The translations under genes and the position numbers were made by a program. The notes beneath the pieces were generated by a model. It saw only the letters and a list, made by a program, of their open reading frames with translations, had not been told where the DNA came from and searched no databases. Below are positions 11,918 through 31,896 of a stretch of DNA of 64,000 nt, piece after piece (position 1 is the first letter of the stretch; every line of letters starts with the position of its first letter). The stretch is from Myxococcales bacterium (GTDB lineage Bacteria > Myxococcota_A > Polyangia > Polyangiales > Polyangiaceae): the NCBI GenBank assembly GCA_016720545.1, contig JADKKK010000003.1, forward strand, positions 217,516-281,515, read 5' to 3'.

Positions 11918-13423
11918 TCATGGGGGCGGTGGGGCGGGAGGCGGCGGCGCGCCAGACGCCGGCGCGCCGGGCGGGGCCGCCCCAGCGGCGAGGCGCTCGC
12001 GGAGGATGCGAGCGGCGTACGCGTACGAGGGGTTCTGCGGCTGCTCGCGCGCGAGCTGCTCGTAGGCCTCCGCCGCCTTGGCCAGATCGCCCTTGTGGAC
12101 CTCGTCGACCGCGGTGCGCTCGAGTGTGGGCCCCTTGCCCGCGTCTTTCCCCGCGGCCGCCGACGGATCGGACGTCCCCGAGGGGGCGGGGCCCGGCGTG
12201 GGGTTGGGCGCGTTGGGCGCAGTGCCCGGGGCGGTCGGAGTGGGCGTCGGCGGCGTGCTCGGCGGCGTGGGCGTGGGGACGAGGCCCATCGCCGAGGGCA
12301 CCGGCGCCGGATCGCCCGCCAGCGCACCGGCCTCGGCGCCCGCGTCGGACCGGGCGGCCTTTTTGGGCGGCGGCGGTGGATCGTCGGTGAAGAGGATGAG
12401 CGCCGCCGCGACGAGCGCCAGCGGCAGGATGATGTAGGTGAGCTTGCGGACGGGCGACGCGGTCTTGAAGTCGGCGATCGCCTTCTTCAGCGGGTCGGTC
12501 TCGGCGGGCGGCGCCGCCTGCGGGAGCTGTCCGACGCCAGAGGCCGAGAATCCTTGAGGGAAAAGTTGCTCCTGCCCGGCCGAGAACGAGCCGCCAGCCT
12601 GCATCGGCTGCATGGGGGGGAAGCCACTGCTTCCCCCGCTCATCGACGCGTTCGGGAAGCCGCCGCTCATGCCGGGCATCCCGCCGGGCATTCCCCCCTG
12701 CCCTTGCATCGGGAAGCCGCCGCTCGCGCCGGGCCCTTGCATCGGGAAGCCGCCGCTCGCGCCGGGCCCTTGCATCGGGAAACCGCCGCTCATGCCTGCG
12801 CTGGGCATCCCGGGCGCCTGCATGGGGAAGCCGCCCCCGGCGGGCGGGAAGGCGCCGGTGGGCGGGCGGGTGCCGCTGCGCGACATGGAGAGATCCAGGG
12901 GCGCGACCCGCGTGGACTCGCCGTCGTCGGCCTGGCTCGAGAACGCCCCGGGCTGGAACGGCCGCGACGGCGCGTCGGTGGGCACCGCCGGAGCGCCCCC
13001 CGAGATTTGCGCGGTGCGGGCAGCGGGTGGCTGGCCAGCCGCAGGAATAGGGGCTGCGGTCGGCGCCTTCGGGGGCGCAGCGGGCGCAGGCGGCGGACCG
13101 GCCGCGGCCCGCTCTTCGGCGCGGTACTCCAAGCGCGCGCCACCGATGTCGATGCTGCAAGGCGGGCGCACCTCGGTCCACTCGGTGCCGATGGGGAAGC
13201 CGTCGACACACGCCGCGTTGTCGGGGTCGGTGGTCTGAAGGAAGAGCGCGTAGCCGTCAAAGTACGCGTACGCGTGCACGTCGAGCATGCGCGCGCCGTC
13301 GATCCGCCACTGGCCGCGGCGGCCGATGCTCAGCGTGGGGGACTCCTTCCCGGAGGTGAGCGGGATGAACCCGGGCTCCCCGATTCCGTTCACGATCTCG
13401 ATGACGTGGGTGGAGGCCGCCAT
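11918..13423 (-). CDS. FHA-like domain protein with Pro/Gly-rich repeats, TM segment and C-terminal TPR-like region
   Basis: The N-terminus is FHA-like ('TLSIGRRGQWRIDGARMLDVHAYAYFDGYALFLQ'). It is followed by three 33-nt in-frame tandem repeats encoding 'GPGASGGFPMQ', then a TM segment ('LTYIILPLALVAAALILF'). The ATG at 13423 is in frame. Confidence 0.55.
   Translation of the reverse strand: MAASTHVIEIVNGIGEPGFIPLTSGKESPTLSIGRRGQWRIDGARMLDVHAYAYFDGYALFLQTTDPDNAACVDGFPIGTEWTEVRPPCSIDIGGARLEYRAEERAAAGPPPAPAAPPKAPTAAPIPAAGQPPAARTAQISGGAPAVPTDAPSRPFQPGAFSSQADDGESTRVAPLDLSMSRSGTRPPTGAFPPAGGGFPMQAPGMPSAGMSGGFPMQGPGASGGFPMQGPGASGGFPMQGQGGMPGGMPGMSGGFPNASMSGGSSGFPPMQPMQAGGSFSAGQEQLFPQGFSASGVGQLPQAAPPAETDPLKKAIADFKTASPVRKLTYIILPLALVAAALILFTDDPPPPPKKAARSDAGAEAGALAGDPAPVPSAMGLVPTPTPPSTPPTPTPTAPGTAPNAPNPTPGPAPSGTSDPSAAAGKDAGKGPTLERTAVDEVHKGDLAKAAEAYEQLAREQPQNPSYAYAARILRERLAAGAAPPGAPASGAPPPPAPPPP
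12700..12798 (-). repeat. 33-bp in-frame tandem repeat x3 (encodes GPGASGGFPMQ)
   Basis: The unit 'ccttgcatcgggaagccgccgctcgcgccgggc' is repeated directly. Confidence 0.7.
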
Positions 13424-13485
13424 GAAGGGACAACACGCGGGGGGGGAAGGAGGTTGGAGGATCGACCGACCGAGAACCGGGGACG

Positions 13486-14601
13486 TCAGCGCCGACGCTG
13501 CGCGGCTTCGTAGACCGAGGCCGGCAGGTCGAGCCCGTGCTCGTGCAGTTGCTCGATGCAACGAGGGATGATCCCGGTCGGGCCGATCGTGCTCTCGATC
13601 TTTCCGGACGGGTCGAACCCTTGGTACTCGCGCACGAAGATGTCCTGCATCTGATACGAGCTCGTGGTCGCATCATACCCCAAGACCTCGGTCACGTGCG
13701 TGATCTTGCGGCTGCCGTCCTGGAGGCGCGACACCTGAACGATGAGGTTCACGGCCGAGGCGATCTGCACGCGGAGCGCGTGGAGCGGCATGTCGACGTC
13801 GCTCATCATGCCCATGGTCTCGAGGCGGGTGATGGTGTCGCGCGGGTACGTGGCGTGGAGCGTGGACATACAGCCGCCGTGGCCCGAGGTCATGGCTTGC
13901 ACGAGGTCGAGCGCCTCGCCGCCGCGGATCTCGCCCACGACGATGCGGTCGGGGCGGAGGCGGAGGGTCGCGCGGAACAGGTCGCGGATCTTCACCTCGC
14001 CCTTGCCCTTTGGATCGGGCGGGCGCGCTTCGAGCTGGCACACGTGCACGCGCTGGAGCTGCAGCTCGCGGGAGTCTTCGATGATGACGACGCGCTCTTC
14101 GTCGGGGATGAAGGACGAGAGCGCGTTCAACATCGAGGTCTTGCCAGACCCCGTGCCGCCGGCGATGAGCACGTTGAGCTTCGACGCGACGAACACCTTC
14201 AGCGCCTCGGCGACCTCGTCGGTCATGGCGCCGAAGTTGATGAGGCGCTGGACGGTGAGGGTCTCCTTGAAGAACCGGCGGATCGACACGCAGGGGCCGT
14301 CGGGGGCCGCCGGCGGAAGCACGGCCTCGATACGCGATCCGTCGGGCAGGCGCCCCTCGAGGATCGGTCGCTCTTCGTCGATGTGCTTGCCGACGTACTG
14401 CGCGGCGTTGCGGAGCGCCGCGGTGAGGTGCTCGACGCTCTCGAACTTCGAGTCGGAGAGGTGGAGCGTCCCCTTCTTCTCGAAGTAGATCTGCCCCGGC
14501 CCGTTGATCATGATGTCGCTGACGCCCGGATCCTCGAGGAGGGGCCGGATGGGGCCGAAGAACTGGAGGAGCGTCTCTTCGAATATTTCCTTCGGAATCA
14601 T
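13486..14601 (-). CDS. CpaF/TadA-family secretion ATPase (short form, no FHA)
   Basis: It has a Walker A ('[10 protein letters not shown]') and the conserved CpaF/VirB11 core ('RIVVGEIRGGEALDLVQAMTSGHGGCMSTLHA'). The ATG at 14601 overlaps the stop of the upstream TPR lipoprotein (ATGA). Confidence 0.8.
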   Translation of the reverse strand: MIPKEIFEETLLQFFGPIRPLLEDPGVSDIMINGPGQIYFEKKGTLHLSDSKFESVEHLTAALRNAAQYVGKHIDEERPILEGRLPDGSRIEAVLPPAAPDGPCVSIRRFFKETLTVQRLINFGAMTDEVAEALKVFVASKLNVLIAGGTGSGKTSMLNALSSFIPDEERVVIIEDSRELQLQRVHVCQLEARPPDPKGKGEVKIRDLFRATLRLRPDRIVVGEIRGGEALDLVQAMTSGHGGCMSTLHATYPRDTITRLETMGMMSDVDMPLHALRVQIASAVNLIVQVSRLQDGSRKITHVTEVLGYDATTSSYQMQDIFVREYQGFDPSGKIESTIGPTGIIPRCIEQLHEHGLDLPASVYEAAQRRR

Positions 14602-15230
14602 GGCGTATCGCCCTCGACGCGGTGAAGGATGGAGGCCCGCGCTTCCTCGACGTGAGAGCCCTTCGGGTCGAGCCGGAGGTACTCGCGAAAATGAGCGTCC
14701 GCGGCCACGAGATCTTGCTCCGCGTCCCGCAGCAGCACGGCGAGCGCGTAGTGCGCTTGGGCGTCGTTGGGGCGCGCCGCGAGCACGCGCTCGAACTCGA
14801 CGCGGGCGAGCTTGGGCTCCTCGGTCGCCGAGTACAGCGACGCGAGCACGAGGCGCACGCGCACGTCGTTCGGGTGTTTCACGAGGTGCTCGCGCGCGTA
14901 CTTCGCCGCGAGCCGAAAGCGCGACTCCTTGATGCACACCTCGAGCAGCAGCGGCATGATCTGCCGAGGGTCGCCGCCTTGGGCGAGCGCGTCGGCCAGG
15001 TACTCCTCCGCGCGCACGTAGTCGCCCACCGCCGCGAAGCCGCGCCCACGCGAGATGAGCTTGTCGACGGTGTGCTCGCGGCTGTACGTGGCCACGTCTG
15101 CCTTGATGGTCTCCGACACGGAGGGCGGCCCGCACGCAGCGGCACCGAGCGCCACGAGCGTCGCCGTCAGCGCGCGCGCGTGTATTATGCACGAGTTTAG
15201 GAGGGCGGCTCCCCGGCGCGCGGCGCTCAC
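14598..15230 (-). CDS. TPR-repeat lipoprotein
   Basis: It has a lipobox ('LVALGAAAC') and TPR repeats. The proposed GTG start at 15230 overlaps the TGA of the upstream FHA gene (GTGA). An alternative ATG at 15290 would overlap that gene by 64 nt. Confidence 0.5.
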   Translation of the reverse strand: MSAARRGAALLNSCIIHARALTATLVALGAAACGPPSVSETIKADVATYSREHTVDKLISRGRGFAAVGDYVRAEEYLADALAQGGDPRQIMPLLLEVCIKESRFRLAAKYAREHLVKHPNDVRVRLVLASLYSATEEPKLARVEFERVLAARPNDAQAHYALAVLLRDAEQDLVAADAHFREYLRLDPKGSHVEEARASILHRVEGDTP

Positions 15231-16102
15231 GTCTTCTTGGCGGCCTCGCCGATTTTCAGCTTCAGCTTTCTGTCGAGGTTCGAGAGCCATGTCACGTACT
15301 CGCCCGTCTTTCCGCTGGTGAACTGCTGAAGAATGCGGACCTGCCGCTGGGCGAGCGCCCAGTCTTCCACGGAGAGCGCGTGGTCGAGCCGCACCTGCTG
15401 TGTGCGGTAGTCGTCGTTGAGCTCGGCGCGCATGGCCCGGGCCGCCTGGTCGGCGATGCCCGCCGAGACAGCGTCGCCACCGACACGGTAGCACGCGGCC
15501 GCTTCCTCGAACAAAGGGACCGCGTGGACGCCATCGGCGACGTGGAAGGGCCGGCGCTCGCGCTTCGCGTCGGCGATGGCCATGCGCTCCTGCGCGCGGG
15601 CGAGGCCCTGCGCGCCGCTCACGGGGCAGGCCGCGATGGGCGGCCCCCAGAGGACGGGCGCCTCCTTCTTGCCGAGCACCGGCCCGGTGGCCTCGTCAGG
15701 GGCGAGGAACAGGTAGCCGGCCGCCGGGAGCATGAGCGCGAGGCCGATGAAGGCCAGCGGGCTCTGCCCTTTCTTCTTCTGCTGGGTCTGGCCACCGAGG
15801 CCAGCCGAGTCCGCGATCGCGACGGCGATCTGGGTCTGGTTGACGCCGAGCACCGCGTCCGGCGGGAGCGGCGACTGCATGAAAGGGACGTTGTTGATCG
15901 TCGGCGAGGGCTGGAAGTTCAGCGCCTTCGCGAAGACGCCCGCCGGGCCGAGCTCGATGAGGAGGTGCTCGACGGCCGCCTGATCGAGCGGCAAGCGGAT
16001 CTCGCAGTGCGCGCCGCTGCCGATGAGCACGCGCTCGGACTCGATGTTGAGCTGCTCGATCTGCCCGGTGGGGAGTCGGATCTGGAAGCGTAGGACGCGC
16101 AC
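15227..16102 (-). CDS. FHA-domain membrane protein
   Basis: The N-terminus is FHA-like ('ERVLIGSGAHCEIRLPLDQAAVEHLLIELGP...PTINNVP') and there is a central TM segment ('LAFIGLALMLPAAGYLFLA'). Confidence 0.6.
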   Translation of the reverse strand: MRVLRFQIRLPTGQIEQLNIESERVLIGSGAHCEIRLPLDQAAVEHLLIELGPAGVFAKALNFQPSPTINNVPFMQSPLPPDAVLGVNQTQIAVAIADSAGLGGQTQQKKKGQSPLAFIGLALMLPAAGYLFLAPDEATGPVLGKKEAPVLWGPPIAACPVSGAQGLARAQERMAIADAKRERRPFHVADGVHAVPLFEEAAACYRVGGDAVSAGIADQAARAMRAELNDDYRTQQVRLDHALSVEDWALAQRQVRILQQFTSGKTGEYVTWLSNLDRKLKLKIGEAAKKT

Positions 16103-16123: not shown

Positions 16124-17035
16124 CTAGAGGCCGCCCGTGATGTTCATCATGGCGGGGCCAAGGATGAGCCCCATGATGGCGAAGAAGACGAGCATCAGCG
16201 GGCCGACCATGGCCACGCCCGCCTTCGCCGCCGACTCCTCCGCGCGAACGGAGCGGCGCTGACGCGACACGCCCGCTTGGATGCTGAGCACCTCCGAGAC
16301 CGGGTTGCCGCGCTCCTCCGCTTGGACAAGCGAGTTGACGAACTCGATCACGGCCTCGCAGGGGCAACGGTTCATGAACTCGATGAGCGCGTCCTTGCGG
16401 GTGCGCCCGAGGTTCATGGTCTGGAGGAGGAGAGTGAACTCCTCGACGATGGGGTCGGCCGGGTTGCTGGACTTCTCGACCACTTGGCGAACGGCCCCGG
16501 GGAAGTCGAGGCCCGCACCCATGGAAAGCGCCATGAGATCGATGACATACGGCAAGCCCCGGCTGACCGACTTGAGTCGCTCTTGGGCCTCGCCGCTGAT
16601 CTGCATGTAGGGCATCGACCCGCCGAGCGCGAGGCCGGCGATGAGCGTGATCTGCCCGAGGTCCATCATCCAGCCGAAGATGCCGCCCACGACGCCGCCA
16701 GCGACCGTCGCGAGGATGGTGAGCGCGATGTACTCGTCGGCGCTGATGCCCATGAAGTCGCCGGCGAGGCCGATCTGCTTGTCGAGGGCCGCGCGCTGCT
16801 CGTCGGTGGGCAGGCCGCTGACCCGGAGGCCGAGCCAGCGCACGATGGGCTCGATGCTGGCCCAGGTCTCGTTGTTCGCCAACGCGCGCTGGCGCTTCAG
16901 GCCGCGGAGGCCGAAGCGGCTCGCCACGCGGCTCGGCGCGCTGCCGATCGTGTAGAGGGCCAGGGCGGCTGCGAAGCTGATGAGGACCGGCACCGAGTAG
17001 CGGAGGGTGAGGAGCTGCCAGGAGTAGGTGGGCAT
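16124..17035 (-). CDS. TadC-like pilus-assembly inner-membrane platform protein (T2SSF family)
   Basis: It is a polytopic membrane protein with GspF/TadC-like sequence ('GLPYVIDLMALSMGAGLDF'), located directly downstream of the TadB-like gene. Confidence 0.7.
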   Translation of the reverse strand: MPTYSWQLLTLRYSVPVLISFAAALALYTIGSAPSRVASRFGLRGLKRQRALANNETWASIEPIVRWLGLRVSGLPTDEQRAALDKQIGLAGDFMGISADEYIALTILATVAGGVVGGIFGWMMDLGQITLIAGLALGGSMPYMQISGEAQERLKSVSRGLPYVIDLMALSMGAGLDFPGAVRQVVEKSSNPADPIVEEFTLLLQTMNLGRTRKDALIEFMNRCPCEAVIEFVNSLVQAEERGNPVSEVLSIQAGVSRQRRSVRAEESAAKAGVAMVGPLMLVFFAIMGLILGPAMMNITGGL

Positions 17036-17036
17036 G

Positions 17037-17921
17037 TCAGAGGTCCACCGCGAGCACCTTGCGGGCGATGATGATGGAGCTGGCCCAACACGCGACGCAG
17101 CCCGTGCTGATGAGGTACCCGGTGACGCTCTTGGTGAGCGGGTCGAAGTAGCCGGGCCAGAGCGAGTTCAGGCCGACGAGCAAGCCGAACGGCATGACCG
17201 CGATGACCCAGAGCTGCATCTTGCCCTCGGCGGTCTTGGTGCGGACGACGCCCTCGAGGCGGCGCATCTCGCGGAGCGTGTTGGCCGTCGCCTCGAGCAC
17301 CTTCGGGAGATTGCCGCCGACCTGCCGACCGATGAGCACGGACGAGAGCGCCGAGTCGAGCTGGCGGCTGCCGACCCGCGCAGCCATGTGGAGCAGCGCC
17401 TGATCGAGCGTGCTGCCGACCTTCATCTCCTTCAGCGCGAGGTCGACCTCCTGACGCATCGGATCGGTGATGACCGACGCGACCGAGTTGAGCGCGCCGC
17501 CGATGCTCGGCGTGGTCTTCAGGGCGTTCGCGAGCGCGAGCATGAAGTTGTCGAGCTGCTCTTCGATGAGCTCGACCCGCTTGCGGCGCATGGCCTCGAT
17601 GTAGACGAGCGGCACCACCGCGATGAGGAGCAGGCCCGCCCACCACATGGGGATGGAGAACAGCACGTTCGCCGTGATGAGGAAGAACGCCACGCCGAGC
17701 TGCCCGAGCGTGATGTTCTGCCCCGGGATGAAGATGAACATCGGCCGCAGGCGCTGCTCGAGCAGCGAGTTGTAGCGGGCCCAGTAGCGGTACACGGGAC
17801 CCGACTGATCGGCCGCGGCGGCCCACGTGCCAGCGAAGAGCGCGAGCCCGGTGACCCCGGCGCTCGCCCACTTCAGCACCTCCGTCACGGGGGACACGTC
17901 CCCCATTCTGCCGCTCATCAT
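17037..17921 (-). CDS. TadB-like pilus-assembly inner-membrane platform protein (T2SSF family)
   Basis: It is a polytopic T2SSF-family protein. Its ATG overlaps the stop of the upstream ATPase (ATGA at 17918-17921). Confidence 0.7.
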   Translation of the reverse strand: MMSGRMGDVSPVTEVLKWASAGVTGLALFAGTWAAAADQSGPVYRYWARYNSLLEQRLRPMFIFIPGQNITLGQLGVAFFLITANVLFSIPMWWAGLLLIAVVPLVYIEAMRRKRVELIEEQLDNFMLALANALKTTPSIGGALNSVASVITDPMRQEVDLALKEMKVGSTLDQALLHMAARVGSRQLDSALSSVLIGRQVGGNLPKVLEATANTLREMRRLEGVVRTKTAEGKMQLWVIAVMPFGLLVGLNSLWPGYFDPLTKSVTGYLISTGCVACWASSIIIARKVLAVDL

Positions 17922-25177: not shown

Positions 25178-25251
25178 ACGGGAGACACGTTACGCGGACG
25201 GGCGACCGCGCCGGCGATGAAAAGCGCGCGGCCCGAGCGAATCGGACGGCG

Positions 25252-26775
25252 TCACCGCTGGAGGATGATGTCCCCGGTCGCGGGCGGCTTCACGGCGGGC
25301 ACCGGCGAGGACGGCGCCGCCTTGGGGTGCCCCGCCGCGTTCGTGTGAGCGCCCTTGGTAGGCGACGCGGATGCGGTGGGCGCGGCGCTCGCCGAGGCGA
25401 GGGCGCTCGCGGACGGTGCGGACGCCAAGGCGACCGGCAGGGCAGTCGCGCTCGGCGGGCTCACGAGGGTGGCCGCCGGCGGCGGGGCGGGCGCGGTGGC
25501 CTGCGTCGCACGCCAGACGAGGACGATCGCGAGCGAAAGCAGCCCGAGCGCCGTGGCGCTGGTCGAGATCACGAGGGCGATGTTGCGGCTCGGTGGCGGG
25601 GCGCCGTGGACCTCGGGGCCGGTCGCGGAGGCCATCGAGAGCCCGGTGCCAGGGGTCGAGCTGCGCTCCTGGCCGGCGAGCGTCACGCCCACGACAGGGG
25701 CGGCGGCGGAGGCCACCAGGCTAGGCTGCGGCCCGCCCGTGGGAAGCGACGCGTCGGCGGTGGGCAACTGCGGGAGGTCGAGCGGGGCGAGCTCGCCCGT
25801 GACCATGAGCGGGCCCCTCGAGAGCTGTCGCTCGATGACGGCGCGGATACGCGCGCGCTCCTCCGCGAAGTGCTCGGCGACCGCCGTGCCCACTGGGCGA
25901 AGCTGCGGGGGCGGGTCGAGCGTCGCCAAGTACGCGTCGATCGGGGCGCGCATCGCGGCCGCGGTGGAGAACCGGTCGTCCGGCTTGGGCGCGAGCGCGC
26001 GAGCGCACACCTCAACCAGCGCCGGTGGCGCGTCTGGGGCGAACTCGGTGAGCTTCGGCAGCTCGCCCATCGCGAGGTAGTGGATGATCCCTGCGTCCGG
26101 GAGATCCTTCCACATGCGTCGGCCCGCGACGGCCTCCCACAGCATGATGCCCACGGCGAAGATGTCCGCGCGGCGATCCACCTTACGGCCCAGCGCCTGC
26201 TCGGGCGCCATATAGGAAATTTTTCCTTTGATGACGCCGGTTTGCGTCTTCTGCGACGACGTCGCCGCCTTCGCGACGCCGAAGTCGACGACCTTCACCT
26301 GGCCGTCGAAGGTGACGAAGACGTTGTGCGGGCTCACGTCGCGATGCACGACGTTGAGCGGCGTCCCGTCCCAGTCGACCGCCTCGTGCGCGGCGTGGAG
26401 GCCCTCGAGCACCTCGGCGAGGACACGGACGTGAGAGTCGACCGAGAGCGCTCCTTTGCGAATGAGGCGGGAGCGCACGTTGGAGAGGGGCTGCCCCTCC
26501 AGGTACTCCATGACCAGCATGTACTTCCCGTCGCCGTCCATGACCTCGTAGGTCTGGACGATGTTCGGGTGGTTTAGGCGCGCCGCGAGCCGCGCCTCGT
26601 CGAGGAACATCTCGCGAAACTCGTACTCCTCCGCGAGCTCTGCCTTCAGCTGCTTGACGACGACGAGCTTGGTGAAGCGGCTCGGCCCCTCGGCGGCGGC
26701 GAGGTAGACCGTCGCCATGCCTCCCCGCCCAAGCTCCCCCAGGAGGCGGTATTTTCCAAGGGTAGGCTCCGTCAT
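25252..26775 (-). CDS. Ser/Thr protein kinase with TM segment and Ala/Pro-rich extracytoplasmic tail
   Basis: The kinase motifs are present ('LGRGGMATVYLA', 'VVK', 'HRDVSPHNVFV', 'DFGVAK', 'YMAPEQ'), followed by a TM ('IALVISTSATALGLLSLAIVLV'). Confidence 0.85.
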   Translation of the reverse strand: MTEPTLGKYRLLGELGRGGMATVYLAAAEGPSRFTKLVVVKQLKAELAEEYEFREMFLDEARLAARLNHPNIVQTYEVMDGDGKYMLVMEYLEGQPLSNVRSRLIRKGALSVDSHVRVLAEVLEGLHAAHEAVDWDGTPLNVVHRDVSPHNVFVTFDGQVKVVDFGVAKAATSSQKTQTGVIKGKISYMAPEQALGRKVDRRADIFAVGIMLWEAVAGRRMWKDLPDAGIIHYLAMGELPKLTEFAPDAPPALVEVCARALAPKPDDRFSTAAAMRAPIDAYLATLDPPPQLRPVGTAVAEHFAEERARIRAVIERQLSRGPLMVTGELAPLDLPQLPTADASLPTGGPQPSLVASAAAPVVGVTLAGQERSSTPGTGLSMASATGPEVHGAPPPSRNIALVISTSATALGLLSLAIVLVWRATQATAPAPPPAATLVSPPSATALPVALASAPSASALASASAAPTASASPTKGAHTNAAGHPKAAPSSPVPAVKPPATGDIILQR

Positions 26776-26867: not shown

Positions 26868-27260
26868 TCAGGGAGACGGGCACTTCCCGCGGCAGGCGGC
26901 CCGAACCGCGTGGCACTTGTCGATGCAGGGCTTCAGCTTGTCGGCGCACTTGCTGAGGCACTTGTTGTCGTTCAGCGTCTTCTGCTTCTTCGCCTCTTCC
27001 TCGGTCGTCTTGCAGGCCTTGAAGCAGGGCTCTTCCTTCTTCAGACAGAGCGACGAACAGTAGGTGCTGCCCTGGTCGCAGCGCTGCCCGCACGCCGTGG
27101 CCTGCTCGGCGTCGGCGCAGGCCTGCTCGACCAGCTCCACGCCCTCGGACGACAAGTCAGCCGACCCCGCACAGCGCACCGAGCTCGAGGGGGAGAAGGC
27201 GAGCAGCCAGGCGCCGAAGAAGGTCGCGACCGAGCCGCTGATCCGCGCGAGGGAGCTCAT
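26868..27260 (-). CDS. Small secreted Cys-rich protein (about 14 Cys, repeated CX3C pairs)
   Basis: The internal ATG gives a signal peptide ('MSSLARISGSVATFFGAWLLAFS'). The mature ~105 aa contain paired CX3C motifs ('PCFKAC', 'KCLSKC', 'PCIDKC', 'ACRGKC'). The ATG overlaps the upstream gene's stop (ATGA). Confidence 0.5.
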   Translation of the reverse strand: MSSLARISGSVATFFGAWLLAFSPSSSVRCAGSADLSSEGVELVEQACADAEQATACGQRCDQGSTYCSSLCLKKEEPCFKACKTTEEEAKKQKTLNDNKCLSKCADKLKPCIDKCHAVRAACRGKCPSP

Positions 27261-28237
27261 TGGAGATCGAGGTCCTGGGGCTTGACGCCGGGGACCACTT
27301 CCATGATCGACATGGCGGTGGTTCCAGAGCCGGCCGCGCGCCGCGCGGTGATGATCACCTGGGTGCCGCCGTTGAAGTACGCCCGCATCGTGCCTTCGGG
27401 GTGCTCGGGGGCGATCGAGCGCCAGTCGCCCGTGCTGGCGGCCCACTTGTCGTAGAAGACGCCCACGTCCTCTGGCGCCAGCGAGGTCTCGTAGATGCGC
27501 ACGCCATACGGGCTGCCGACGACCTCGGCCGTCATGAGGCGCTTGGCGCCGTTGGGGCGCGGGAGGAGCGAGTCGCTGCCGGGAGCGGTGCCGTCCGTGT
27601 TGGCGATCTTCGCGAAACTAAAGGAGTTGTCGGTCCAGGCGGTGACCACGCGGGTGCCGTGGGTGGTCTCCCGCGCATAGACGTACCGAAGCTTGCCGAG
27701 GTCGCCAAGGTCCTGCGACTCGGCGAAATTCTTGAGGGCGTCCGTGGCGCTGTTGGACGTGCGCTCTCCCTTGATGAGGCACATCACCGCGCCCTCGCCC
27801 GTGCTCCCCTGGGTGCGGAGGATGCCCGAGTGCATCGTCTTCGGCAGCTTGTGCCCGTCGACCACCATGTTCGCCTTGGGCACCTGCGACCAGAGCTCTC
27901 CAAGGGCGCCTTTGTCTTGCTCGCAGCGGCCCTCATAGTCGTCCAGAATCGACTTCACCGTCGCGTCGGTCATGCCTTCGCGAAGGAAGAAGCTCTGGCC
28001 GTTGAGGCGGACTTCACTGGCGCCGTCGCTCGCGAGCGGCGCGATCTCGCGGCCAAACTTGAGGGTCGCCTTGCCGATATCGGCCTTAGCGGTGTGGGTC
28101 GCGAACAGGCCAACGCCGAGACCCGCCACGAGCACGACCGCAGCTGCGCGGCCCGCGCCGCGGATTTGCTGTGCGCGGGCGCTGTTGAAGCCCTTGGCGT
28201 TTCGCCAGGCGATGAGCAGGGGGCCGAGCATGTTCAT
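27257..28237 (-). CDS. Hypothetical N-terminally anchored membrane/periplasmic protein
   Basis: It has a TM near the N-terminus ('AAVVLVAGLGVGLFA') and is co-operonic with the pseudopilin genes. No recognisable domain was found. Confidence 0.5.
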   Translation of the reverse strand: MNMLGPLLIAWRNAKGFNSARAQQIRGAGRAAAVVLVAGLGVGLFATHTAKADIGKATLKFGREIAPLASDGASEVRLNGQSFFLREGMTDATVKSILDDYEGRCEQDKGALGELWSQVPKANMVVDGHKLPKTMHSGILRTQGSTGEGAVMCLIKGERTSNSATDALKNFAESQDLGDLGKLRYVYARETTHGTRVVTAWTDNSFSFAKIANTDGTAPGSDSLLPRPNGAKRLMTAEVVGSPYGVRIYETSLAPEDVGVFYDKWAASTGDWRSIAPEHPEGTMRAYFNGGTQVIITARRAAGSGTTAMSIMEVVPGVKPQDLDLQ

Positions 28238-28280: not shown

Positions 28281-28796
28281 CTAGTTCGCCGCGCCAGCGA
28301 TCTTACCCTTAACGTAGCCGAACATGCCGCTGAAGCTGCCGTCTTCCGGTGTCTCGTTGCACACGGCGGTCGACGTGAGACTGTTGACCTTGAGCGAGAG
28401 CCCCATCCCCCGGGTGGAGGTGTTGGGCTTCGGATTGATGACGGTGGTCGAGGCGTACGTGACCTGGGTCTTCGCCATGAAGCCGCTGGTCTTCGCCTGC
28501 CCTGGAGCGTTCGCGAGGGCCTCGGCCGACTGGCTGTCGGCGGCGCCGACGCCGCCTCCCACCCCCGCGGAGCCCTGCGAGCGGCTCGTGTTTCCGTACT
28601 GAATCACCTGCCGCTGGCACTGGTGAGAGGCGTAGTCGAGCGCCATGGAGCGCGCCTGCTGGTTCTGCGTGAGCTTCACCGTGTACGCGTTGCCCATCAT
28701 CATGGTGAGTCCGAGGAAGGAGACCATCACCGGCAGCACCACCGCCGCTTCCACCATCGCCGCTCCCCGAAGGGAGAATTTGCGGGACTTCTTCAT
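28281..28796 (-). CDS. TadE-like pseudopilin
   Basis: The N-terminus ('RGAAMVEAAVVLPVMVSFLGLTMMMG') is the TadE/TadF signature. The ATG at 28796 is in frame. Confidence 0.65.
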   Translation of the reverse strand: MKKSRKFSLRGAAMVEAAVVLPVMVSFLGLTMMMGNAYTVKLTQNQQARSMALDYASHQCQRQVIQYGNTSRSQGSAGVGGGVGAADSQSAEALANAPGQAKTSGFMAKTQVTYASTTVINPKPNTSTRGMGLSLKVNSLTSTAVCNETPEDGSFSGMFGYVKGKIAGAAN

Positions 28797-28812: not shown

Positions 28813-30273
28813 CTAGTGGAGCATCTGGGGGATGACCGGGCCCGTGGGGTCGATGCCGAGCGCGCCGTTGATTGCGCCGCTGGCCGCCGCGGTGCCCTTC
28901 TTGATGGTGTCGTCCACGATGGCGCCAGCGAACGGACCGCCCTTACCGATGGCGCCTTCAATCGACTTGTACGCGTCGCTGCCCTTGATGGAGTCGCCGA
29001 GCTTGCCGCCGAGGAAGTCGGCCACCGGGCCGATGAAGAGGTCGGCGAGGGCGCCGCCGAGCAGCGAGCCGAGCGACGGAGACTTCACGTGGCGGATACG
29101 GGCCATCCACCGCATGTTGAAGGTGACCTCGGTCGAGCTGTCCCCATTGCACTTGGCGTCGGCAAACTTCGCGTCGCAGTCGTAGTAGAACTCGGCCTGG
29201 GCGGAGTAGATGGGGGCCTGGGGGACGCGGCCGCGAGCGGCGACCGCTTGGGAGTACACGGCGCCCTTGCTCCCGATGGCGAGCGCCACCTTGCTCTCCG
29301 CGAAGCCTTCGTCGTACTTCGTAGGCGTGAGAATCGACCAGATTTGCAGCCAGTCGTTGCCATTCGACGCGGGGCCGTACCACTTCTTCCAGCCGAGGTT
29401 CTGGTTCTTCCACACACCTCCGTTGCAGTAGCCGCGCCCTTCGACGAAGCGCCCGCCGACCCAGGAGATGATGGAGCCGAGGAAGCTCGGGAAGAAGCTG
29501 CCCACTGAGTCGGTGACGCGCAGGCAGAGCTCTGCGTTTTCGGCGAGCGTGACCGGAAGGCCGAGCTTCATGCCGAAGGTGGTGGGCTTCGCGCCGCCGG
29601 CCGCTGGGGCGCCGGCCGCGCCGGTCGCGGGCACCGACGGAGGCTTGCCGCCGCCAAAGTACTTGTCGAGGTTCATCGAGAAGTTGAACCCCGGGATATT
29701 CGACGGCCCGATCGCGAGCCCGGTCGTCTTGTAGTCGGACCCCACGCTGTAGCCAGCGTAGGTGCCGTACCACGGGTAGCCGATGGCCACCGCGGTGCCG
29801 GTCAGGCTGAGCGCCGGCAGGCCAATGTTCACGGCCGAGGCCTCGTAGGCGTTCTTCGCGACGGTGACCGCGCGGTCGGCCGCGGTGGCGACCGGCAAGG
29901 CTTCGCAGCAGAAGGCGCACCCGACGATGGTGGCAGCGCAGGTGGTGAGCAGCGTGACGGCGAGATCGAGCAGGTCCTTCAGGACGCACAGGATCACCCA
30001 GATCAGCGCGATGACGTACATCACGATGTTGATCACGCTGATGATGTTCATGCCGCGGGCGTGGACGACGGCCGACGTGAAGGCCACGTGGTCCGCGCTC
30101 TCTTGCATGCGGTCTTTGAAGACGACGGCGTCGCCGATGCCCTTCATGAACCACATCGCGCCGATGAGGAACGTGGCCATGAAGAGGCCCATCACCATCA
30201 CGGCGCCGCGCGTGTCCTCGCGCAGGTCACGCACGTCGCGAGTTCCGAGCTGGTCGAAGGTTGCGGTTGTCAT
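28813..30273 (-). CDS. TadG-like / large membrane-anchored pilus-associated protein
   Basis: It has N-terminal TM helices and a Gly-rich C-terminus, and lies between the two TadE-like genes. Its start overlaps the stop of the upstream TadE-like gene (TGATG). Confidence 0.5.
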   Translation of the reverse strand: MTTATFDQLGTRDVRDLREDTRGAVMVMGLFMATFLIGAMWFMKGIGDAVVFKDRMQESADHVAFTSAVVHARGMNIISVINIVMYVIALIWVILCVLKDLLDLAVTLLTTCAATIVGCAFCCEALPVATAADRAVTVAKNAYEASAVNIGLPALSLTGTAVAIGYPWYGTYAGYSVGSDYKTTGLAIGPSNIPGFNFSMNLDKYFGGGKPPSVPATGAAGAPAAGGAKPTTFGMKLGLPVTLAENAELCLRVTDSVGSFFPSFLGSIISWVGGRFVEGRGYCNGGVWKNQNLGWKKWYGPASNGNDWLQIWSILTPTKYDEGFAESKVALAIGSKGAVYSQAVAARGRVPQAPIYSAQAEFYYDCDAKFADAKCNGDSSTEVTFNMRWMARIRHVKSPSLGSLLGGALADLFIGPVADFLGGKLGDSIKGSDAYKSIEGAIGKGGPFAGAIVDDTIKKGTAAASGAINGALGIDPTGPVIPQMLH

Positions 30274-30818
30274 CAGTCCACCTTGTACCTTGCGCCTTGA
30301 TTGGGCATCGTCGCTTCGGCCGTGAGGATCTTGCGAGAGCCGGGACAGATGAGTCGACCCATGGGGACCGTGCAGCTGTAGGTCGCCTGCACGCGCACCC
30401 GAACGGGTCCGTAGACGTCGGACATGCTCGAACCGTCTTGGACCGAGACGCTGACGTTCGAGACGGAGCCGCTCGTGATCCAGGGGCTCAGCGCGAGGCC
30501 GGCGGCCTGCTTGACGTCGGTGTTGCTGCCCTTTTCGCCGGGGTTGGTGGGCTTCTTCACCATCACGATGGCCGCGCGCGCCGCGGTGATCGCCGCGTGC
30601 TGAACGCCGAGGTTGACGGTGTAGATCTTCGCCACCTGTACGAAGGAGAAGAACGTGGTGAGCAAAGGCACGACGGCGATGACGAACTCGACCAGGGCCG
30701 CTCCGCGACGATCGTGGAGGAGCGACGCGGGCGCAGAAGCCGAGTCGGAGCTGCCGGAGTCGGCGGAGCCTGACTCATGCGGCGCAGGATTAAAAAATAC
30801 CGACCTGAGCGACTTCAT
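30273..30818 (-). CDS. TadE-like pseudopilin
   Basis: It carries the TadE signature 'RRGAALVEFVIAVVPLLTTFFSFVQV'. The ATG at 30818 was checked. Confidence 0.65.
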   Translation of the reverse strand: MKSLRSVFFNPAPHESGSADSGSSDSASAPASLLHDRRGAALVEFVIAVVPLLTTFFSFVQVAKIYTVNLGVQHAAITAARAAIVMVKKPTNPGEKGSNTDVKQAAGLALSPWITSGSVSNVSVSVQDGSSMSDVYGPVRVRVQATYSCTVPMGRLICPGSRKILTAEATMPNQGARYKVD

Positions 30819-31357
30819 TTCGACCCCCAATGGAAGGCGGTGGTCACGGCGACGCCGATAAAAATACACGGCCCCAGGCGAAACCACGTCATGGCCTCGG
30901 GCTCGACCGCCTTGCGCTTTTCTTTGGGCAAGACGGGATTGAACATCAGATAGATGGTGTTCTTCAGTGTCCTGAAGAGCTTGCCGTCGTAGGCGAGCCG
31001 CGCCGGCGCGATCACGAGCGCCGCCATGAAGGCGTACATCTCGAGCTCGAGGCCGAGCGACGGGTGGCAGAGCGCGCCAAGCGCCGCGAGGAGCTTCAAG
31101 TCGCCGCCGCCGATCGCGTTCTGGCGATAGAGGACCAGCGGGACGACCGCGGTCACACAGGCCCCTGCGACGGAGAAGCCGCCTTCAAAGGCAGCTTCGT
31201 CCGAGGCTATGCCCTGCGCAGAGGCAGCGACGAAGTGGGCGATGGGGGCGAGAAACAGCGCCGGTAGCGTCACCCAATTGGGTATCTGGCCCGACTTCAT
31301 GTCGTACACCGCAGCGATGCCACTTACGATGACCGCTGCGATGAGAAAGGGAATCAT
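30815..31357 (-). CDS. Prepilin peptidase, CpaA/TadV type (A24 family, no methyltransferase domain)
   Basis: It is a polytopic membrane protein with the two catalytic Asp regions ('AAVYDMKSGQIPN' and 'GGGDLKLLAALGA'). Confidence 0.7.
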   Translation of the reverse strand: MIPFLIAAVIVSGIAAVYDMKSGQIPNWVTLPALFLAPIAHFVAASAQGIASDEAAFEGGFSVAGACVTAVVPLVLYRQNAIGGGDLKLLAALGALCHPSLGLELEMYAFMAALVIAPARLAYDGKLFRTLKNTIYLMFNPVLPKEKRKAVEPEAMTWFRLGPCIFIGVAVTTAFHWGSK

Positions 31358-31484
31358 GGCACCATGGCTACCGAATACGGGCGCTTTTTTTTCGCGTGGC
31401 GTGTGGGTCGTGCGCGTGTCCGCGAGGACGCGGGGGCCTGCTCGGTCACCCAAGCCGAGCAGGCCGCACACACGCGCAAGCGGA

Positions 31485-31640
31485 TCAGAGCTGCTGGGTC
31501 GCGTTCGTGGCCGAGCGACCGACGACGGGGCCGAGCGCCTTGAAGGCCGCAGCGGCGAGCAGCAGGACGGCGACGAGGAGGAGCGCGTACTCGACCATGG
31601 AGGCGCCGCGGGACTTCATGCGAAGGATCTGCTTGTTCAT
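31485..31640 (-). CDS. flp: Flp/Fap-family pilin (51 aa)
   Basis: The manual translation is MNKQILRMKSRGASMVEYALLLVAVLLLAAAAFKALGPVVGRSATNATQQL. It carries the Flp motif 'G/ASMVEYAL' and has a GGAGAAG ribosome-binding site. It is absent from the ORF track only because it is short. Confidence 0.75.
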   Translation of the reverse strand: MNKQILRMKSRGASMVEYALLLVAVLLLAAAAFKALGPVVGRSATNATQQL

Positions 31641-31700
31641 GTTCTTCTCCGAGAGGGGTTGCAGGCAGTTGAGGGTGCAGTTGAGGGTGAACGGGGCCTA

Positions 31701-31896
31701 TCAGGGGATAGGCGCCATGAGTGTGGTACGTGACGAACGATAGTCTGCGAGCATCTTCACGCCGCCGGCGGTGATCCCCACCATGGTGGGGACGGCGACG
31801 AACGTGAGGAGGAGAGCGTACTCTACCAGGACGGCGCCGCGGGCTGCGCGCGATGCGCGAGGCGGTAGGGCGGGTCGTGCGAACGCGCTTCGTCAT
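31701..31896 (-). pseudogene. flp: Second flp pilin gene with apparent +1 frameshift in the leader
   Basis: An ATG at 31896 opens 'MTKRVRTTRPTASRIARS...'. The pilin body ('RGAVLVEYALLLTFVAVPTMVGITAGGVKMLADY...') is in the +1 frame with no start codon of its own. Deleting one C in the run 'AGCCCGCGG' restores an intact Flp prepilin. The span is 196 nt, which is not a multiple of 3. Confidence 0.5.

Follow-up and report, generated by a model that had tools for sequence, protein, structure and literature searches.

A probable Kil-type Tad pilus operon with an inserted kinase-barrel module in an uncultured myxobacterium

The 64-kb stretch of DNA analysed here (the window) harbors, at positions 11918-31896, 18 tightly spaced genes that comprise a complete Tad/Flp machine and extra genes. 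Its ends coincide with the start codon of the foremost flp gene (ATG, 31896) and the stop codon of the final gene (11918). A preliminary description of this DNA had assigned the locus to a single strand, and third-position GC frame plots and translations confirmed the minus strand for every gene; all features below lie on that strand. Intergenic gaps range from -4 to +92 nt, except for 127 nt between the flp genes and the peptidase gene, 246 nt between the barrel gene and cpaB, and a nominal -64 nt between the genes of an FHA-fold protein (F) and a TPR lipoprotein (E), the start codon of the latter being uncertain. Terminator-like sites within the locus were not in excess of those in shuffled sequences. 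A sigma-54-like -24/-12 element (TGGCACG-N4-TTGG, 31970..31984), located some 73 nt ahead of the ATG of flp-1, represents a putative promoter. The pattern TGGCACGNNNNTTGS is matched only here in the 64 kb, with 0.03 matches expected, and this block and an upstream GGTGAATCCATTCGGATCC block are both kept in the orthologous upstream regions of the related loci L081, L168 and L166.

The first two genes both carry a Flp motif, as expected from the preliminary description, however, only the second is intact. The Flp-type pilin gene flp-1 (31701..31896) is frameshifted as assembled: its body (...GAVLVEYALLLTFVAVPTMVG...) is not in the frame of the ATG at 31896, with 64 nt separating the ATG from the G/AVLVEY body, and the orthologues of L081, L166 and L168 are in frame. 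The second gene, flp-2 (31485..31640), encodes a 51-aa Flp prepilin that matches Pfam Flp_Fap weakly and below cut-off (E 0.003); the textbook RG/ASMVEYALLL motif can be read directly (MNKQILRMKSRG/ASMVEYALLL...), and identity to the counterparts in L081, L166 and L168 is 72-84%. They are followed by a short prepilin peptidase of the TadV/CpaA/KilA type (30815..31357; 180 aa, Peptidase_A24 2e-15) and by a trio of minor pilin genes, to which the KilL-KilN-KilM tip concept (PMC12075869) may be applied. The first encodes a TadE-like protein of the KilM/KilL type (30273..30818; TadE 3e-5), which is conserved in L081, L166, L164 and L086, and the third is a second TadE-like minor pilin (28281..28796; TadE 8e-5), both matches lying barely above the Pfam gathering score. 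Between them lies a large minor pilin of 486 aa (28813..30273), earlier described as TadG-like. It has no Pfam match and was assigned as TadG/KilN equivalent by position and architecture; a weak TadE-like match (TIGR03816, 1.3e-3) is confined to the N-terminal hydrophobic helix after RG/A, and in relatives the gene is always flanked by two TadE genes. A membrane-anchored periplasmic protein, O (27257..28237), always follows the trio.

The next gene encodes a small secreted protein, N (26868..27260), with a signal peptide and six CX3C motifs, for which no family match was obtained in Pfam and further searches; the six motifs are kept in the orthologues of L081, L166 and L168 despite an overall identity of just 26-48%. 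It is followed by a pair of genes, the first of which codes for a Hanks-type Ser/Thr kinase (25252..26775; Pkinase 5e-41) with one transmembrane helix, an Ala/Pro-rich periplasmic tail and the C-terminal end GDIILQR-COOH. In its catalytic loop, HRDVSPHN, Ser replaces Lys. The second gene (22250..25177) encodes an outer-membrane protein of 975 aa composed of a TPR segment, three PEGA domains, a Plug and a 22-strand-type barrel. Pfam identified the TPR, two PEGA (4.5e-27), Plug (5e-20) and TonB_dep_Rec (1e-14), whereas the AF2 model (pLDDT 72) contains three PEGA-like beta-sandwiches; a Foldseek search with this model retrieved PqqU, PfeA, FepA and BtuB at E ~1e-25. Few parts of the protein are as well conserved as the TPR segment, with 38% invariant positions compared to 4-20% in the PEGA domains. 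A D-[IL]-R-x-x-R-COOH end occurs in 27 of 29 barrel-preceding kinases, with the terminal Arg being invariant and irrespective of the catalytic-loop type, and barrel-adjacent kinases also share the Pro-rich periplasmic tail. The motif is absent from the two other kinases of the window and from that of L086. This common C-terminal motif suggests that kinase and barrel form a previously undescribed outer-membrane-to-kinase signalling pair.

Downstream of the barrel gene, the machine continues with CpaB/RcpC/KilB (21206..22003; RcpC 3e-19, SAF 2e-6) and a short CpaC/KilC-like secretin of 442 aa (19878..21206; Secretin 5e-25, T2SS-T3SS_pil_N 7e-5), in which N0, STN and Secretin_N were not matched by Pfam. 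A KilF-like FHA-CpaF fusion ATPase of 623 aa (17918..19789; FHA 1.5e-9, T2SSE 8e-64) shares 63-64% identity with Myxococcaceae KilF over 187 columns. Its FHA domain is canonical: all phosphothreonine-binding residues are kept, and five orthologues share the signature residues G-R, S-x-x-H and N-G-T without exception. Two platform proteins of the TadB/KilG-H type (17037..17921; T2SSF 1e-14) and the TadC/KilG-H type (16124..17035; T2SSF 5e-14) are followed by protein F (15227..16102), an FHA-fold protein of the YscD/PrgH type and counterpart of MXAN_4649, with an FHA-fold N-domain, one transmembrane helix and a periplasmic helical domain. Yop-YscD_cpl is matched by protein F (5e-4) and by 35 of 47 family members (best 5.5e-9), and the family, which has 648 representatives, yields a profile that matches the solved FHA domains of FhaA (3e-8) and Ki-67 (2e-6); in protein F the phosphothreonine-binding Arg and Ser are replaced (GSG, AVEH). 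The TPR lipoprotein E (14598..15290; TPR_14 9e-9, TPR_19 2e-7), possibly a TadD-like pilotin, is conserved in L081, L084, L085, L086 and L164, with the lipobox LVGC in the L081 orthologue. A second ATPase of the CpaF/TadA family (13486..14601; 371 aa, T2SSE 2e-57) has neither FHA domain nor linker. Walker A, Asp-box, Walker B and His-box are readable in its sequence, and its identity is 44% with FHA-CpaF and does not exceed 47% with any reference CpaF. In the ATPase tree it forms a deep-branching clade of its own with the orthologues of L081, L084 and L086, and it also occurs in L085 and L164. The last gene encodes a Pro/Gln-rich membrane protein, B (11918..13423), without a match in Pfam or NCBIfam and conserved in L081, L084, L085 and L164; a conserved N-domain is followed by a Pro/Gln/Gly-rich linker, one transmembrane helix, a Pro-rich periplasmic segment and a C-terminal TPR-like hairpin. 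By hhalign, the N-domain aligned with the ATPase FHA (E 2e-3) and the F family (E 5e-4) at probabilities of 13-32%, and it may possibly be a degenerate FHA fold. Of the three FHA or FHA-like proteins earlier proposed, those of the ATPase and protein F are borne out, whereas the third is weakly supported. The Pfam domain matches, including those for FHA, T2SSF and TadE, agree with a complete Tad machine in one locus, and the kinase, second short CpaF, TPR lipoprotein, TonB-receptor-like barrel and Cys-rich gene listed in the preliminary description were all found.

Comparison with related loci separated a conserved core from an inserted part. The core genes, namely those of FHA-CpaF, protein F, lipoprotein E, the second ATPase and protein B, occur in L081, L084-L086, L164 and L168; L166 ends ahead of them. 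Accordingly, the FHA proteins, lipoprotein E and the second ATPase, which might have proved to be chance neighbours, are present in each related locus that reaches that far. For kinase and barrel, which had been considered part of the machine as well, this did not hold. The location of the pair between N and cpaB is common to the window, L081 and L168 and restricted to the subclade of the window (barrel identity at least 70%), and the pair is not found at the corresponding site in the homologous Tad loci L084, L086, L164/L165 and L166, the last of which reads flp-pep-TadE-big-TadE-O-N-CpaB. Conversely, a full-length barrel homologue is encoded at about 45 Myxococcota loci, none of which has Tad genes within 10 kb, as in the stand-alone pairs of L082 and L167 (barrel identity 61-65%). 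The kinase is the only conserved neighbour of the barrel (37 loci); some 30 loci have both genes on one strand, with 400-1100 nt from the end of the kinase domain to the barrel gene downstream. Compared with L081/L168, the window shows 61-72% identity for kinase and barrel and ~80-93% for the flanking machine genes; the divergence of the pair is about the same as its distance from the stand-alone pairs of L167 and L082. The kinase-barrel pair is an independent module that was inserted into the Tad operon at a single site; since Tad loci without the pair and the ~45 Tad-free loci both exist, it is not an ancestral part of the machine.

We consider that the locus probably constitutes a Kil-type Tad (type IVc) pilus operon, into which a separate kinase-barrel module was inserted in the subclade of the window. 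The DNA is from an uncultured myxobacterium; its barrel protein is 100% identical to that of a 'Myxococcales bacterium' MAG. The short prepilin peptidase would process the Flp pilins, the fibre would be primed by the tip trio of TadE, large pilin and TadE, and CpaB and the short secretin would provide the outer-membrane conduit. Assembly would be powered by the FHA-fused CpaF ATPase and the two T2SSF platform proteins, and extension and retraction may be divided between the first and the second ATPase. The YscD/PrgH-type FHA-fold/transmembrane protein, the TPR lipoprotein, the second, ancient CpaF paralogue and the Pro/Gln-rich membrane protein would form the accessory set of this subtype. The kinase-barrel module, which stands alone elsewhere in Myxococcota, would have landed between the pilin/tip block and cpaB. 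Here, the conserved periplasmic TPR of the barrel protein may dock the D-[IL]-R-x-x-R-COOH tail of the kinase, allowing outer-membrane-to-cytoplasm signalling, and the kinase of this subclade may produce phosphothreonine for recognition by the ATPase through its canonical FHA domain. By analogy with Kil, with which predatory myxobacteria kill their prey upon contact, we infer that the machine may mediate contact-dependent prey interaction.

Coupling of the pair to the Tad machine is plausible, and we propose it only tentatively, at somewhat below even chances. In its favor, the FHA domain of the ATPase has the complete set of phosphothreonine-binding residues, and at least three sequenced relatives have kept the pair whole, with both genes in one orientation. 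Moreover, L086 carries, at a distance of 3.7 kb from this Tad subtype, a related kinase with 47% identity together with a signal-TPR-PEGA protein that aligns in register with the N-terminus of the barrel protein (E 3e-9). The replacement of Lys by Ser in the catalytic loop counts against coupling, as does the stronger divergence of kinase and barrel than of the flanking machine genes, and neither a PP2C phosphatase nor an identifiable phospho-acceptor was found. As most pairs and most Tad loci of the subtype are unlinked, linkage is not required for the function of either, and since Ser/Thr kinases abound in the genome, with three in the 64-kb window, proximity alone is weak evidence. That kinase and barrel are merely neighbours of the Tad genes, i.e., a mobile, self-sufficient nutrient-uptake or envelope-signalling module at a permissive junction, comes close to an even chance; the FHA domains would then be served by another kinase or work without phosphorylation. 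The unrelated, non-conserved genes adjoining the ~45 stand-alone pairs, the four homologous Tad loci without the pair and the kinase density of the genome are in line with this, as is the absence of phosphothreonine-binding residues from the FHA-fold proteins F and B. The insertion junction is also where relatives rearrange, the pilin block being divergent in L086 and the M. xanthus genes lying in two clusters. However, a mere neighbourhood does not readily account for the canonical FHA domain of the ATPase, the independent co-location in L086, or a co-oriented pair with gaps of 74-246 nt and no terminator signal, which the window, L081 and L168 all retain unbroken at one position despite a divergence of 28-39%.

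Two further readings concern the function of the barrel and of the pilus. A barrel acting as secretion channel rather than sensor would export the Cys-rich protein or another product of the locus, similar to M. xanthus Oar, a TonB-dependent transporter that exports the protease PopC and sets a precedent (PMC6434023). The Cys-rich gene lies two genes upstream of the barrel gene, with gaps of 92 and 74 nt. However, the barrel has the kinase as its conserved partner rather than the Cys-rich protein, homologues of the latter and of protein O are missing beside the barrel in all of ~50 other loci, and the Cys-rich protein is present without the barrel in L166 and missing from L164, rendering this reading highly improbable. 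With no link to secretion found, its proposed role as candidate cargo is also not upheld. The locus might instead encode an ordinary adhesive or surface-sensing Tad pilus and no killing device, the likeness to Kil reflecting shared myxobacterial Tad ancestry. Pfam and further searches of the proteins of the locus revealed neither toxin nor effector domains, the two ATPases differ from the single one stated for Kil, and the ATPase tree does not place the locus in the Kil clade. Yet the FHA-fused ATPase, its YscD/PrgH-type partner and the KilL/N/M-like trio in Kil order are distinctive features according to the Kil authors, and the TadZ/CpaE positioning ATPase is absent as in Kil; we therefore regard an ordinary pilus as rather unlikely.

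The locus represents the undivided form of M. xanthus kil clusters 1 and 2, as compared to the Kil gene table of Seef 2021 (PMC8460266, supplementary file 1). In M. xanthus, the kil genes are split into two clusters, whereas both are joined at one locus in the window, where the gene order is collinear with cluster 2 and the secretin and ATPase of cluster 1 lie in between. The earlier view of a single-locus, more elaborate Kil relative thus holds with respect to gene order and architecture; a tree based on 187 ATPase columns does not place the locus within the Myxococcaceae Kil clade but in a clade of its own (100% bootstrap), only weakly sister to Bradymonadales (26%). Kil possesses, as a stated trait, a single ATPase, while the window locus has two. 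Both systems have in common the FHA-CpaF fusion, a short secretin, the tip trio of TadE, large pilin and TadE, the lack of TadZ/CpaE, and a YscD/PrgH-type FHA-fold membrane protein encoded right after the two platform genes.

The GC content of the window is about 70%, and spurious long open reading frames are plentiful for this reason; in a third-position GC frame plot, every gene of the Tad locus fell on the minus strand. The ends of the locus coincide with the stop codon of gene B (11918) and the ATG of flp-1 (31896). Read from 31896 to 11918 (-), flp-1 is followed by flp-2 (T, a Flp prepilin), S (a prepilin peptidase of 180 aa), R (a TadE protein), Q (a pilin-like protein of 486 aa), P (a second TadE protein), O (a 326-aa protein without family name), N (a 130-aa Cys-rich secreted protein), M (a Ser/Thr kinase), L (a 975-aa TPR-PEGA-Plug-barrel protein), K (CpaB), J (the secretin), I (FHA-CpaF), H and G (TadB and TadC), F (a 291-aa protein), E (a TPR lipoprotein), D (a CpaF-like ATPase of 371 aa) and B (a 501-aa protein). 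Most neighbouring genes are spaced by -4 to +92 nt. Only three junctions fall outside this range: flp-2/S (127 nt), L/K (246 nt) and F/E, where the start of E is uncertain and the value of -64 nt is nominal. Terminator-like sites within the locus showed no excess over shuffled sequence, and a combined scan for sigma-70 promoters and terminators gave nothing above shuffles.

Pfam matches and the frame plot confirmed the contiguous Tad locus with additional genes that the preliminary description had proposed. Its family assignments were backed by Pfam in all but three cases, a weak Flp match with an otherwise textbook motif and the proteins Q and B, for which family support was missing. The processing motif of flp-2, of the G/XXXXEY type, reads ...SRG/ASMVEYALLL (Flp_Fap, E 0.003), and S is a short prepilin peptidase of the TadV/CpaA type (Peptidase_A24, 2e-15) without the methyltransferase part. 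Motor and platform are represented by T2SSE in I (8e-64) and by T2SSF in two adjoining genes (1e-14 and 5e-14), CpaB and secretin by RcpC in K (3e-19) and Secretin in J (5e-25). The pseudopilins R and P matched Pfam TadE just over the cut-off, and Q, located between them, showed a weak match at its N-terminus only. Thus, the claim of a complete Tad machine held for the core parts, as Flp, TadV/CpaA, pseudopilins, CpaB, secretin, CpaF and TadB/TadC are all present. A ParA-like positioning ATPase of the TadZ/CpaE type was not found among the 19 locus proteins, and Kil, the Tad-like prey-killing apparatus of Myxococcus xanthus, is likewise without one. The secretin J comprises 442 aa and matches pil_N and Secretin only, lacking N0, whereas a PilQ-like secretin elsewhere in the window does match N0, STN and AMIN. 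R, Q and P form a consecutive TadE / 486-aa pilin-like / TadE arrangement, which is kept in related loci. The pilin and tip genes (T to N) diverge at a much higher rate than the machine genes and show a different pattern of relatedness: for T-N, the related Tad locus L166 is nearer to the window than the related locus L081, for K-J-I it is farther. This fits the idea of a diversifying 'tip' put forward in 2025 (PMC12075869).

Among the proteins that accompany this core, I carries an FHA domain at residues 26-90 (1.5e-9) and T2SSE at 271-548 in a single open reading frame. The FHA domain is canonical, with the G-R, S-x-x-H and N-G-T motifs invariant in five orthologues. Searching with protein F gave 648 representatives of a large and as yet uncharacterised family at a cut-off of E 1e-3. 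A profile of 47 family members matched solved FHA domains (M. tuberculosis FhaA, 3e-8; Ki-67, 2e-6; Rv1747, 2e-3), and Pfam Yop-YscD_cpl was matched by 35 of the 47; on account of these two kinds of match, F is classified by sequence as a YscD/PrgH-type protein with FHA fold, in which the phosphothreonine-binding Arg and Ser are replaced. Cluster look-ups for ten distant members of the family returned 'hypothetical protein' throughout and no sequence tie to MXAN_4649. The N-terminal domain of B appeared weakly FHA-like (hhalign E 2e-3 and 5e-4), the phosphothreonine-binding residues not being conserved, and the C-terminus is TPR-like. No homologue was returned when the first 115 residues served as query, so that the FHA-like assignment of B is drawn solely from these weak profile comparisons.

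The second ATPase, D (13486-14601, -), shares 44% of its residues with I and no more than 47% with any of the reference CpaF proteins, falls into a separate clade and has intact nucleotide-binding motifs. Judged by these comparisons, it is not a recent duplicate but an old, distinct lineage of the CpaF family. Its gene always follows that of the TPR lipoprotein (in the window and in the related loci L081, L084, L085, L086 and L164), with a 4-nt overlap in the window, and is conserved in all relatives whose sequence reaches that far. Tad systems have been described as using one bifunctional ATPase, and two motors are unusual.

The preliminary description had regarded the FHA proteins, the second ATPase, the kinase and the barrel as parts of one regulated machine rather than mere neighbours. 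This was examined in both directions, starting from barrel homologues and from Tad genes; Tad relatives were identified via the ATPase (L084, L085, L086) and via protein O (L164/L165, L166). The block I-H-G-F-E-D-B, judged only where the contig of the relative extends far enough, is kept in L084, L085 and L164 and, as far as D, in L086. The pilin block R-Q-P-O is also kept in L164 and L166, and in L086 the pilin block is divergent from peptidase-CpaB. L166 has the order flp, flp, peptidase, TadE, large pilin-like gene, TadE, O, N, CpaB, secretin, with neither kinase nor barrel. In L164, CpaB directly follows O, and L084 leaves no space for a kinase-barrel pair upstream of CpaB. The pair (22250-26775, -) resides inside a Tad locus only in the window, in L081 (barrel 72% identical) and in L168 (70%), in each case at the identical site between N and cpaB, and two further contigs probably share this arrangement, their lengths agreeing between the hit lists for the barrel and for protein O. 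In L167 and L082 (65 and 61% barrel identity), it stands alone among unrelated genes.

In the opposite direction, a genome-wide scan for the barrel yielded 80 loci, 52 of which encode the full-length TPR-PEGA extension. The hosts include Sorangium (two copies per genome), Polyangiaceae, Byssovorax, Sandaracinaceae, Corallococcus, Archangium and a Myxococcus species. Among named organisms, Polyangiaceae, Labilithrix and Sorangium carry the closest relatives of the barrel protein. A tblastn search with all 19 window proteins found no Tad genes within 10 kb of the scanned barrel loci, with the single exception of an Eisenbacteria locus, in which only plug and barrel match and lie on the opposite strand. 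About 30 barrel genes are preceded, on their own strand, by a kinase domain whose end lies 400-1100 nt away, and unbiased clustering of all flanking open reading frames gave the kinase as the only family present in more than 8 loci (37 loci). As the FHA proteins, the TPR lipoprotein and the second ATPase are kept across the relatives that extend far enough, the comparison of loci indicates that they are integral to this Tad subtype, in line with the preliminary description. The inclusion of kinase and barrel in the machine was not upheld: since the pair is missing from homologous Tad loci (L164, L166, L084, L086) and is found elsewhere without Tad genes, the same comparison makes it a module of its own that entered the Tad locus once, in a shallow subclade.

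Taken by itself, the pair is a conserved two-gene module across Myxococcota, present at some 45 loci (from L001-L052, L082 and L167) and twice in Sorangium. In the model of L (pLDDT 72), the signal peptide precedes a TPR segment of five helices (residues 30-119) and three PEGA beta-sandwiches (121-328), after which come the plug and the barrel, both also supported by Pfam (5e-20 and 1e-14). The plug-barrel part matches PqqU, PfeA, FepA and BtuB (Foldseek E about 1e-25; target-normalised TM-score 0.65-0.77), the plug is predicted to sit within a beta-barrel of the 22-strand type, and the C-terminus ends in an aromatic residue (...VSVSF). Typical TonB boxes read ExVVVTA; the segment preceding the plug of L reads LDEVAAASR, in a region of low model confidence. 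An STN-type signalling domain and an anti-sigma partner are both absent at L, the extension being TPR plus PEGA and the neighbour a kinase. Invariant positions are concentrated in TPR (38%) and plug (48%), as opposed to 4-20% in the PEGA domains and 19% in the barrel.

In the kinase M, Pkinase matches across the whole domain (5e-41), and the Gly-rich loop, beta3 Lys, HRD, DFG and APE are readable. The Lys of the catalytic loop (HRDxKxxN expected) is missing, the loop reading HRDVSPHN. Loops of this type also occur in the other kinases of the window's clade and in those of L082, L167 and L086, whereas other barrel-adjacent kinases have HRDLKPxN. The kinases preceding the barrel share a common layout of a cytoplasmic Hanks domain, one transmembrane helix and a Pro/Ala-rich periplasmic tail of 80-220 residues. 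The extreme C-terminus conforms to x-D-[IL]-R-x-x-R-COOH with both loop types, canonical HRDLKPxN and HRDVSPHN, and the terminal Arg is invariant in all 27 motif-bearing sequences; the motif is missing in the two other kinases of the window, in the L086 kinase and in one L-adjacent outlier. TPR domains bind C-terminal peptides, as Hop does with EEVD-COOH and PEX5 with PTS1. Based on this general property, we infer that the periplasmic TPR domain of L may hold the C-terminal tail of the kinase, by which the two proteins would form a signalling pair reaching from the outer membrane to the cytoplasm, analogous to FecA-FecR but ending in a kinase. A description of a kinase-coupled TonB-type receptor was not found in the searched open-access literature. 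The combination of a Hanks kinase with a conserved C-terminal peptide and a TPR-PEGA TonB-type barrel is a widespread and apparently undescribed pair in Myxococcota. One protein, P0108 (1468 aa), was considered as a natural kinase-barrel fusion and rejected, its junction being an Arg-rich frameshift artefact. Two of the scanned loci, L022 and L025, carry the labels Rubrivivax sp. and Klebsiella pneumoniae; both are typical myxobacterial kinase-barrel loci on contigs of the 70%-GC type, and the assemblies are likely mis-binned or mislabelled.

Does the pair act on the pilus? It is co-oriented with the Tad genes within the operon and has stayed intact at one site though diverged by 28-39%, and the canonical FHA domain of the ATPase requires a source of phosphothreonine; work on Kil anticipates a cascade of this sort and has named no kinase for it. 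A related configuration occurs in L086 (16282-19359, -), a more distant relative, where two genes lie 3.7 kb from a Tad locus of the same subtype. The first encodes a kinase that has a periplasmic PEGA domain and 47% identity to M over 322 residues. The second encodes a 337-aa signal-TPR-PEGA-TM protein; it aligns in register with residues 32-153 of L (E 3e-9) and, by this alignment, looks like the N-terminal extension of L without plug and barrel. On the other side, linkage of pair and Tad locus is the exception in both directions, M lacks the catalytic-loop Lys, the locus encodes no PP2C phosphatase and offers no evident substrate, and the embedded pairs are no nearer to one another than to those standing alone in L167 and L082. 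The window also encodes two more Ser/Thr kinases (48913-51441, +, and 54997-57810, -), one of them with HEAT repeats, and proximity as an argument for coupling is weakened by this high density of three kinases. Balancing these observations, functional coupling of the pair to the Tad machine appears conceivable from gene content and arrangement but somewhat doubtful.

A more far-reaching reading, drawn by analogy, is that the pair represents a new class of TonB-type cell-surface signalling device that has been wired into a Kil-like killing pilus in this subclade. The outer-membrane plug-barrel would sense an external cue, e.g., a prey-derived ligand or envelope contact, and the periplasm-spanning Hanks kinase, its D-[IL]-R-x-x-R-COOH peptide held by the TPR domain, would relay it. 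In the window's subclade, the kinase would then be the missing upstream input that tells the FHA-fused ATPase where and when to assemble. We regard this combined proposal as unlikely. An FHA-read phosphorylation cascade with an unnamed kinase has been proposed for Kil (Seef et al., 2021, PMC8460266), and a preprint of July 2026 still calls the spatial determinants of Kil assembly unknown. M may serve as a concrete candidate input kinase for Kil-like assembly, with the linkage confined to one subclade.

As assembled, flp-1 (31701-31896, -) is out of frame, with 64 nt between the ATG and the G/AVLVEY body and a +1 frameshift in the leader relative to three orthologues, which are in frame; either the gene is truly a pseudogene, or the metagenome-assembled genome carries an assembly error in a GC-rich run. 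A sigma-54-like element, TGGCACG-N4-TTGG (31970-31984, -), precedes flp-1 by about 73 nt and is the sole match in 64 kb (0.03 expected). A second block, GGTGAATCCATTCGGATCC, lies about 110 nt further upstream (about 32095-32113, -), and both elements are conserved upstream of the orthologues in L081, L168 and L166, the -12 element having GG rather than GC in three of the four loci. Four orthologues of the Cys-rich protein N have all six of its CX3C motifs despite an overall identity of 26-48%. The protein was previously suggested as cargo, a role that found no support, as N is absent from L164 and nothing ties it to secretion as a cargo. PADLOC defence models matched none of the nameless locus proteins, and NCBIfam added no names for them.

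Between an enoyl-CoA hydratase (ECH) gene and flp-1 lies a gene for a 231-aa lipoprotein (32228-32923, +), 74% identical to the L081 protein and inverted compared to L081, L166 and L168, in which it runs in the direction of the Tad operon. An invertible switch at this position was considered and not supported, as the surrounding inverted repeats were only short 71-93% matches, as expected in DNA of 70% GC, and none of the flanking repeats was convincing. Part of a type IVa pilus cluster (36531-40377, -) is situated 5 kb upstream of the Tad locus and includes the PilQ-like secretin with AMIN, N0/STN and Secretin_N (36531-39068) and PilO (39730-40377); an M1 peptidase with HEAT repeats (33786-36509) separates this cluster from the Tad locus. 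L166 likewise has the secretin-M1-ECH arrangement ahead of its Tad locus. Downstream of the locus, a secreted protein with two CxxCH haem motifs (10445-11665, -) and a PSCyt2/PSD2 (DUF1549/DUF1585) protein (9098-10393, -) are encoded. A homologue of the haem protein with 30% identity also follows the last Tad gene in L084, and kil cluster 1 of M. xanthus starts with a cytochrome-cd1-like protein.

The Kil apparatus of M. xanthus is encoded by two clusters, MXAN_3102-3108 and MXAN_4648-4661 (Seef et al., 2021, PMC8460266). According to that study, KilF combines FHA and ATPase, MXAN_4649 is an FHA protein resembling PrgH, MXAN_4648 and KilD combine FHA and TPR, with MXAN_3104 grouped among these accessory proteins, and a short secretin, KilB, KilG, KilH and the Flp protein KilK are further components. 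The trio KilM, MXAN_4659 (TadG-like, now KilN4) and KilL is followed by small proteins without known function, and a single ATPase is a stated trait of Kil (PMC8460266). The window shares the FHA-CpaF ATPase, the short secretin, CpaB, the short prepilin peptidase, the Flp pilin and the lack of TadZ. Likewise, two platform proteins are followed by a PrgH/YscD-type FHA-fold protein (F compared with MXAN_4649 by the annotation in that paper), and a TadE / large pilin / TadE tip trio is followed by small proteins, a likeness of architecture. The order R-Q-P-O-N-[M-L]-K-[J-I]-H-G-F-...-B is collinear with cluster 2 when the latter is taken in the direction from 4660 to 4648; the secretin and ATPase of cluster 1 sit between CpaB and the platform genes in the window. 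The window differs in having one locus instead of two clusters, a conserved second CpaF paralogue together with a TPR lipoprotein, both encoded after the FHA-fold protein and before the last gene, the inserted pair of kinase and TonB-type barrel, and an ATPase 63-64% identical to KilF of Myxococcaceae. The presence of D contradicts the single motor ATPase stated for Kil. In a neighbour-joining tree of 187 KilF columns (two blocks) from the alignment of Seef et al. with 29 taxa, the window and its relatives formed a separate clade with 100% bootstrap, sister to Bradymonadales at 26%, with 61% for a wider group that includes beta- and gamma-proteobacterial systems. In view of this separate clade, its weakly supported position relative to the Kil group and the second ATPase, we class the locus as a Kil-like variant and not as a Kil orthologue. 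The earlier view of the locus as a relative of Kil stood for architecture and gene order; the second ATPase sets it apart, and the ATPase tree gave no firm placement with or away from Kil. The locus defines a single-locus Kil-like system of Polyangia type, whose conserved accessory genes include the one for the second motor ATPase, and such a system may help to reconstruct the origin of the split M. xanthus system and to decide which of the 'unknown' genes are core.

With the classical Tad/Flp pili (tad of Aggregatibacter, cpa of Caulobacter), the window shares Flp, TadV/CpaA, TadE/F/G-like pilins, RcpC/CpaB, the RcpA/CpaC secretin, TadA/CpaF and TadB/TadC; it differs by the FHA domain on the ATPase, the two ATPases, the lack of TadZ/CpaE and the FHA-fold accessory proteins. 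An analogy to the threonine-phosphorylation pathway of the Pseudomonas aeruginosa T6SS (TagQRST-PpkA-Fha1-PppA) has been proposed by the Kil authors (PMC8460266). Both would share a logic, deduced here from the genes alone, in which an envelope sensor activates a membrane Hanks kinase and an FHA domain, on recognising the resulting phosphothreonine, triggers assembly of a contact weapon. In the window, the part of the sensor would fall to a TonB-type barrel extended by TPR and PEGA domains, the motor ATPase itself carries the FHA domain, and the locus has no PP2C phosphatase. M. xanthus Oar, required for PopC secretion, resembles L by description: it is a TonB-type barrel, carries a beta-sandwich extension at the N-terminus and has a role other than nutrient uptake; its extension is CarboxypepD_reg, and to our knowledge no adjacent kinase partner is known. 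In common with transducers of the FecA-FecR-FecI type, the pair has an outer-membrane plug-barrel with an extra periplasmic N-terminal domain and an adjoining gene whose product, the signalling partner, crosses the inner membrane once and has a tail in the periplasm. By this analogy, it may be a kinase-coupled counterpart of FecA/FecR-type signalling, in which TPR and three PEGA domains take the place of the STN signalling domain, and a Hanks kinase ending in D-[IL]-R-x-x-R-COOH that of the anti-sigma factor.
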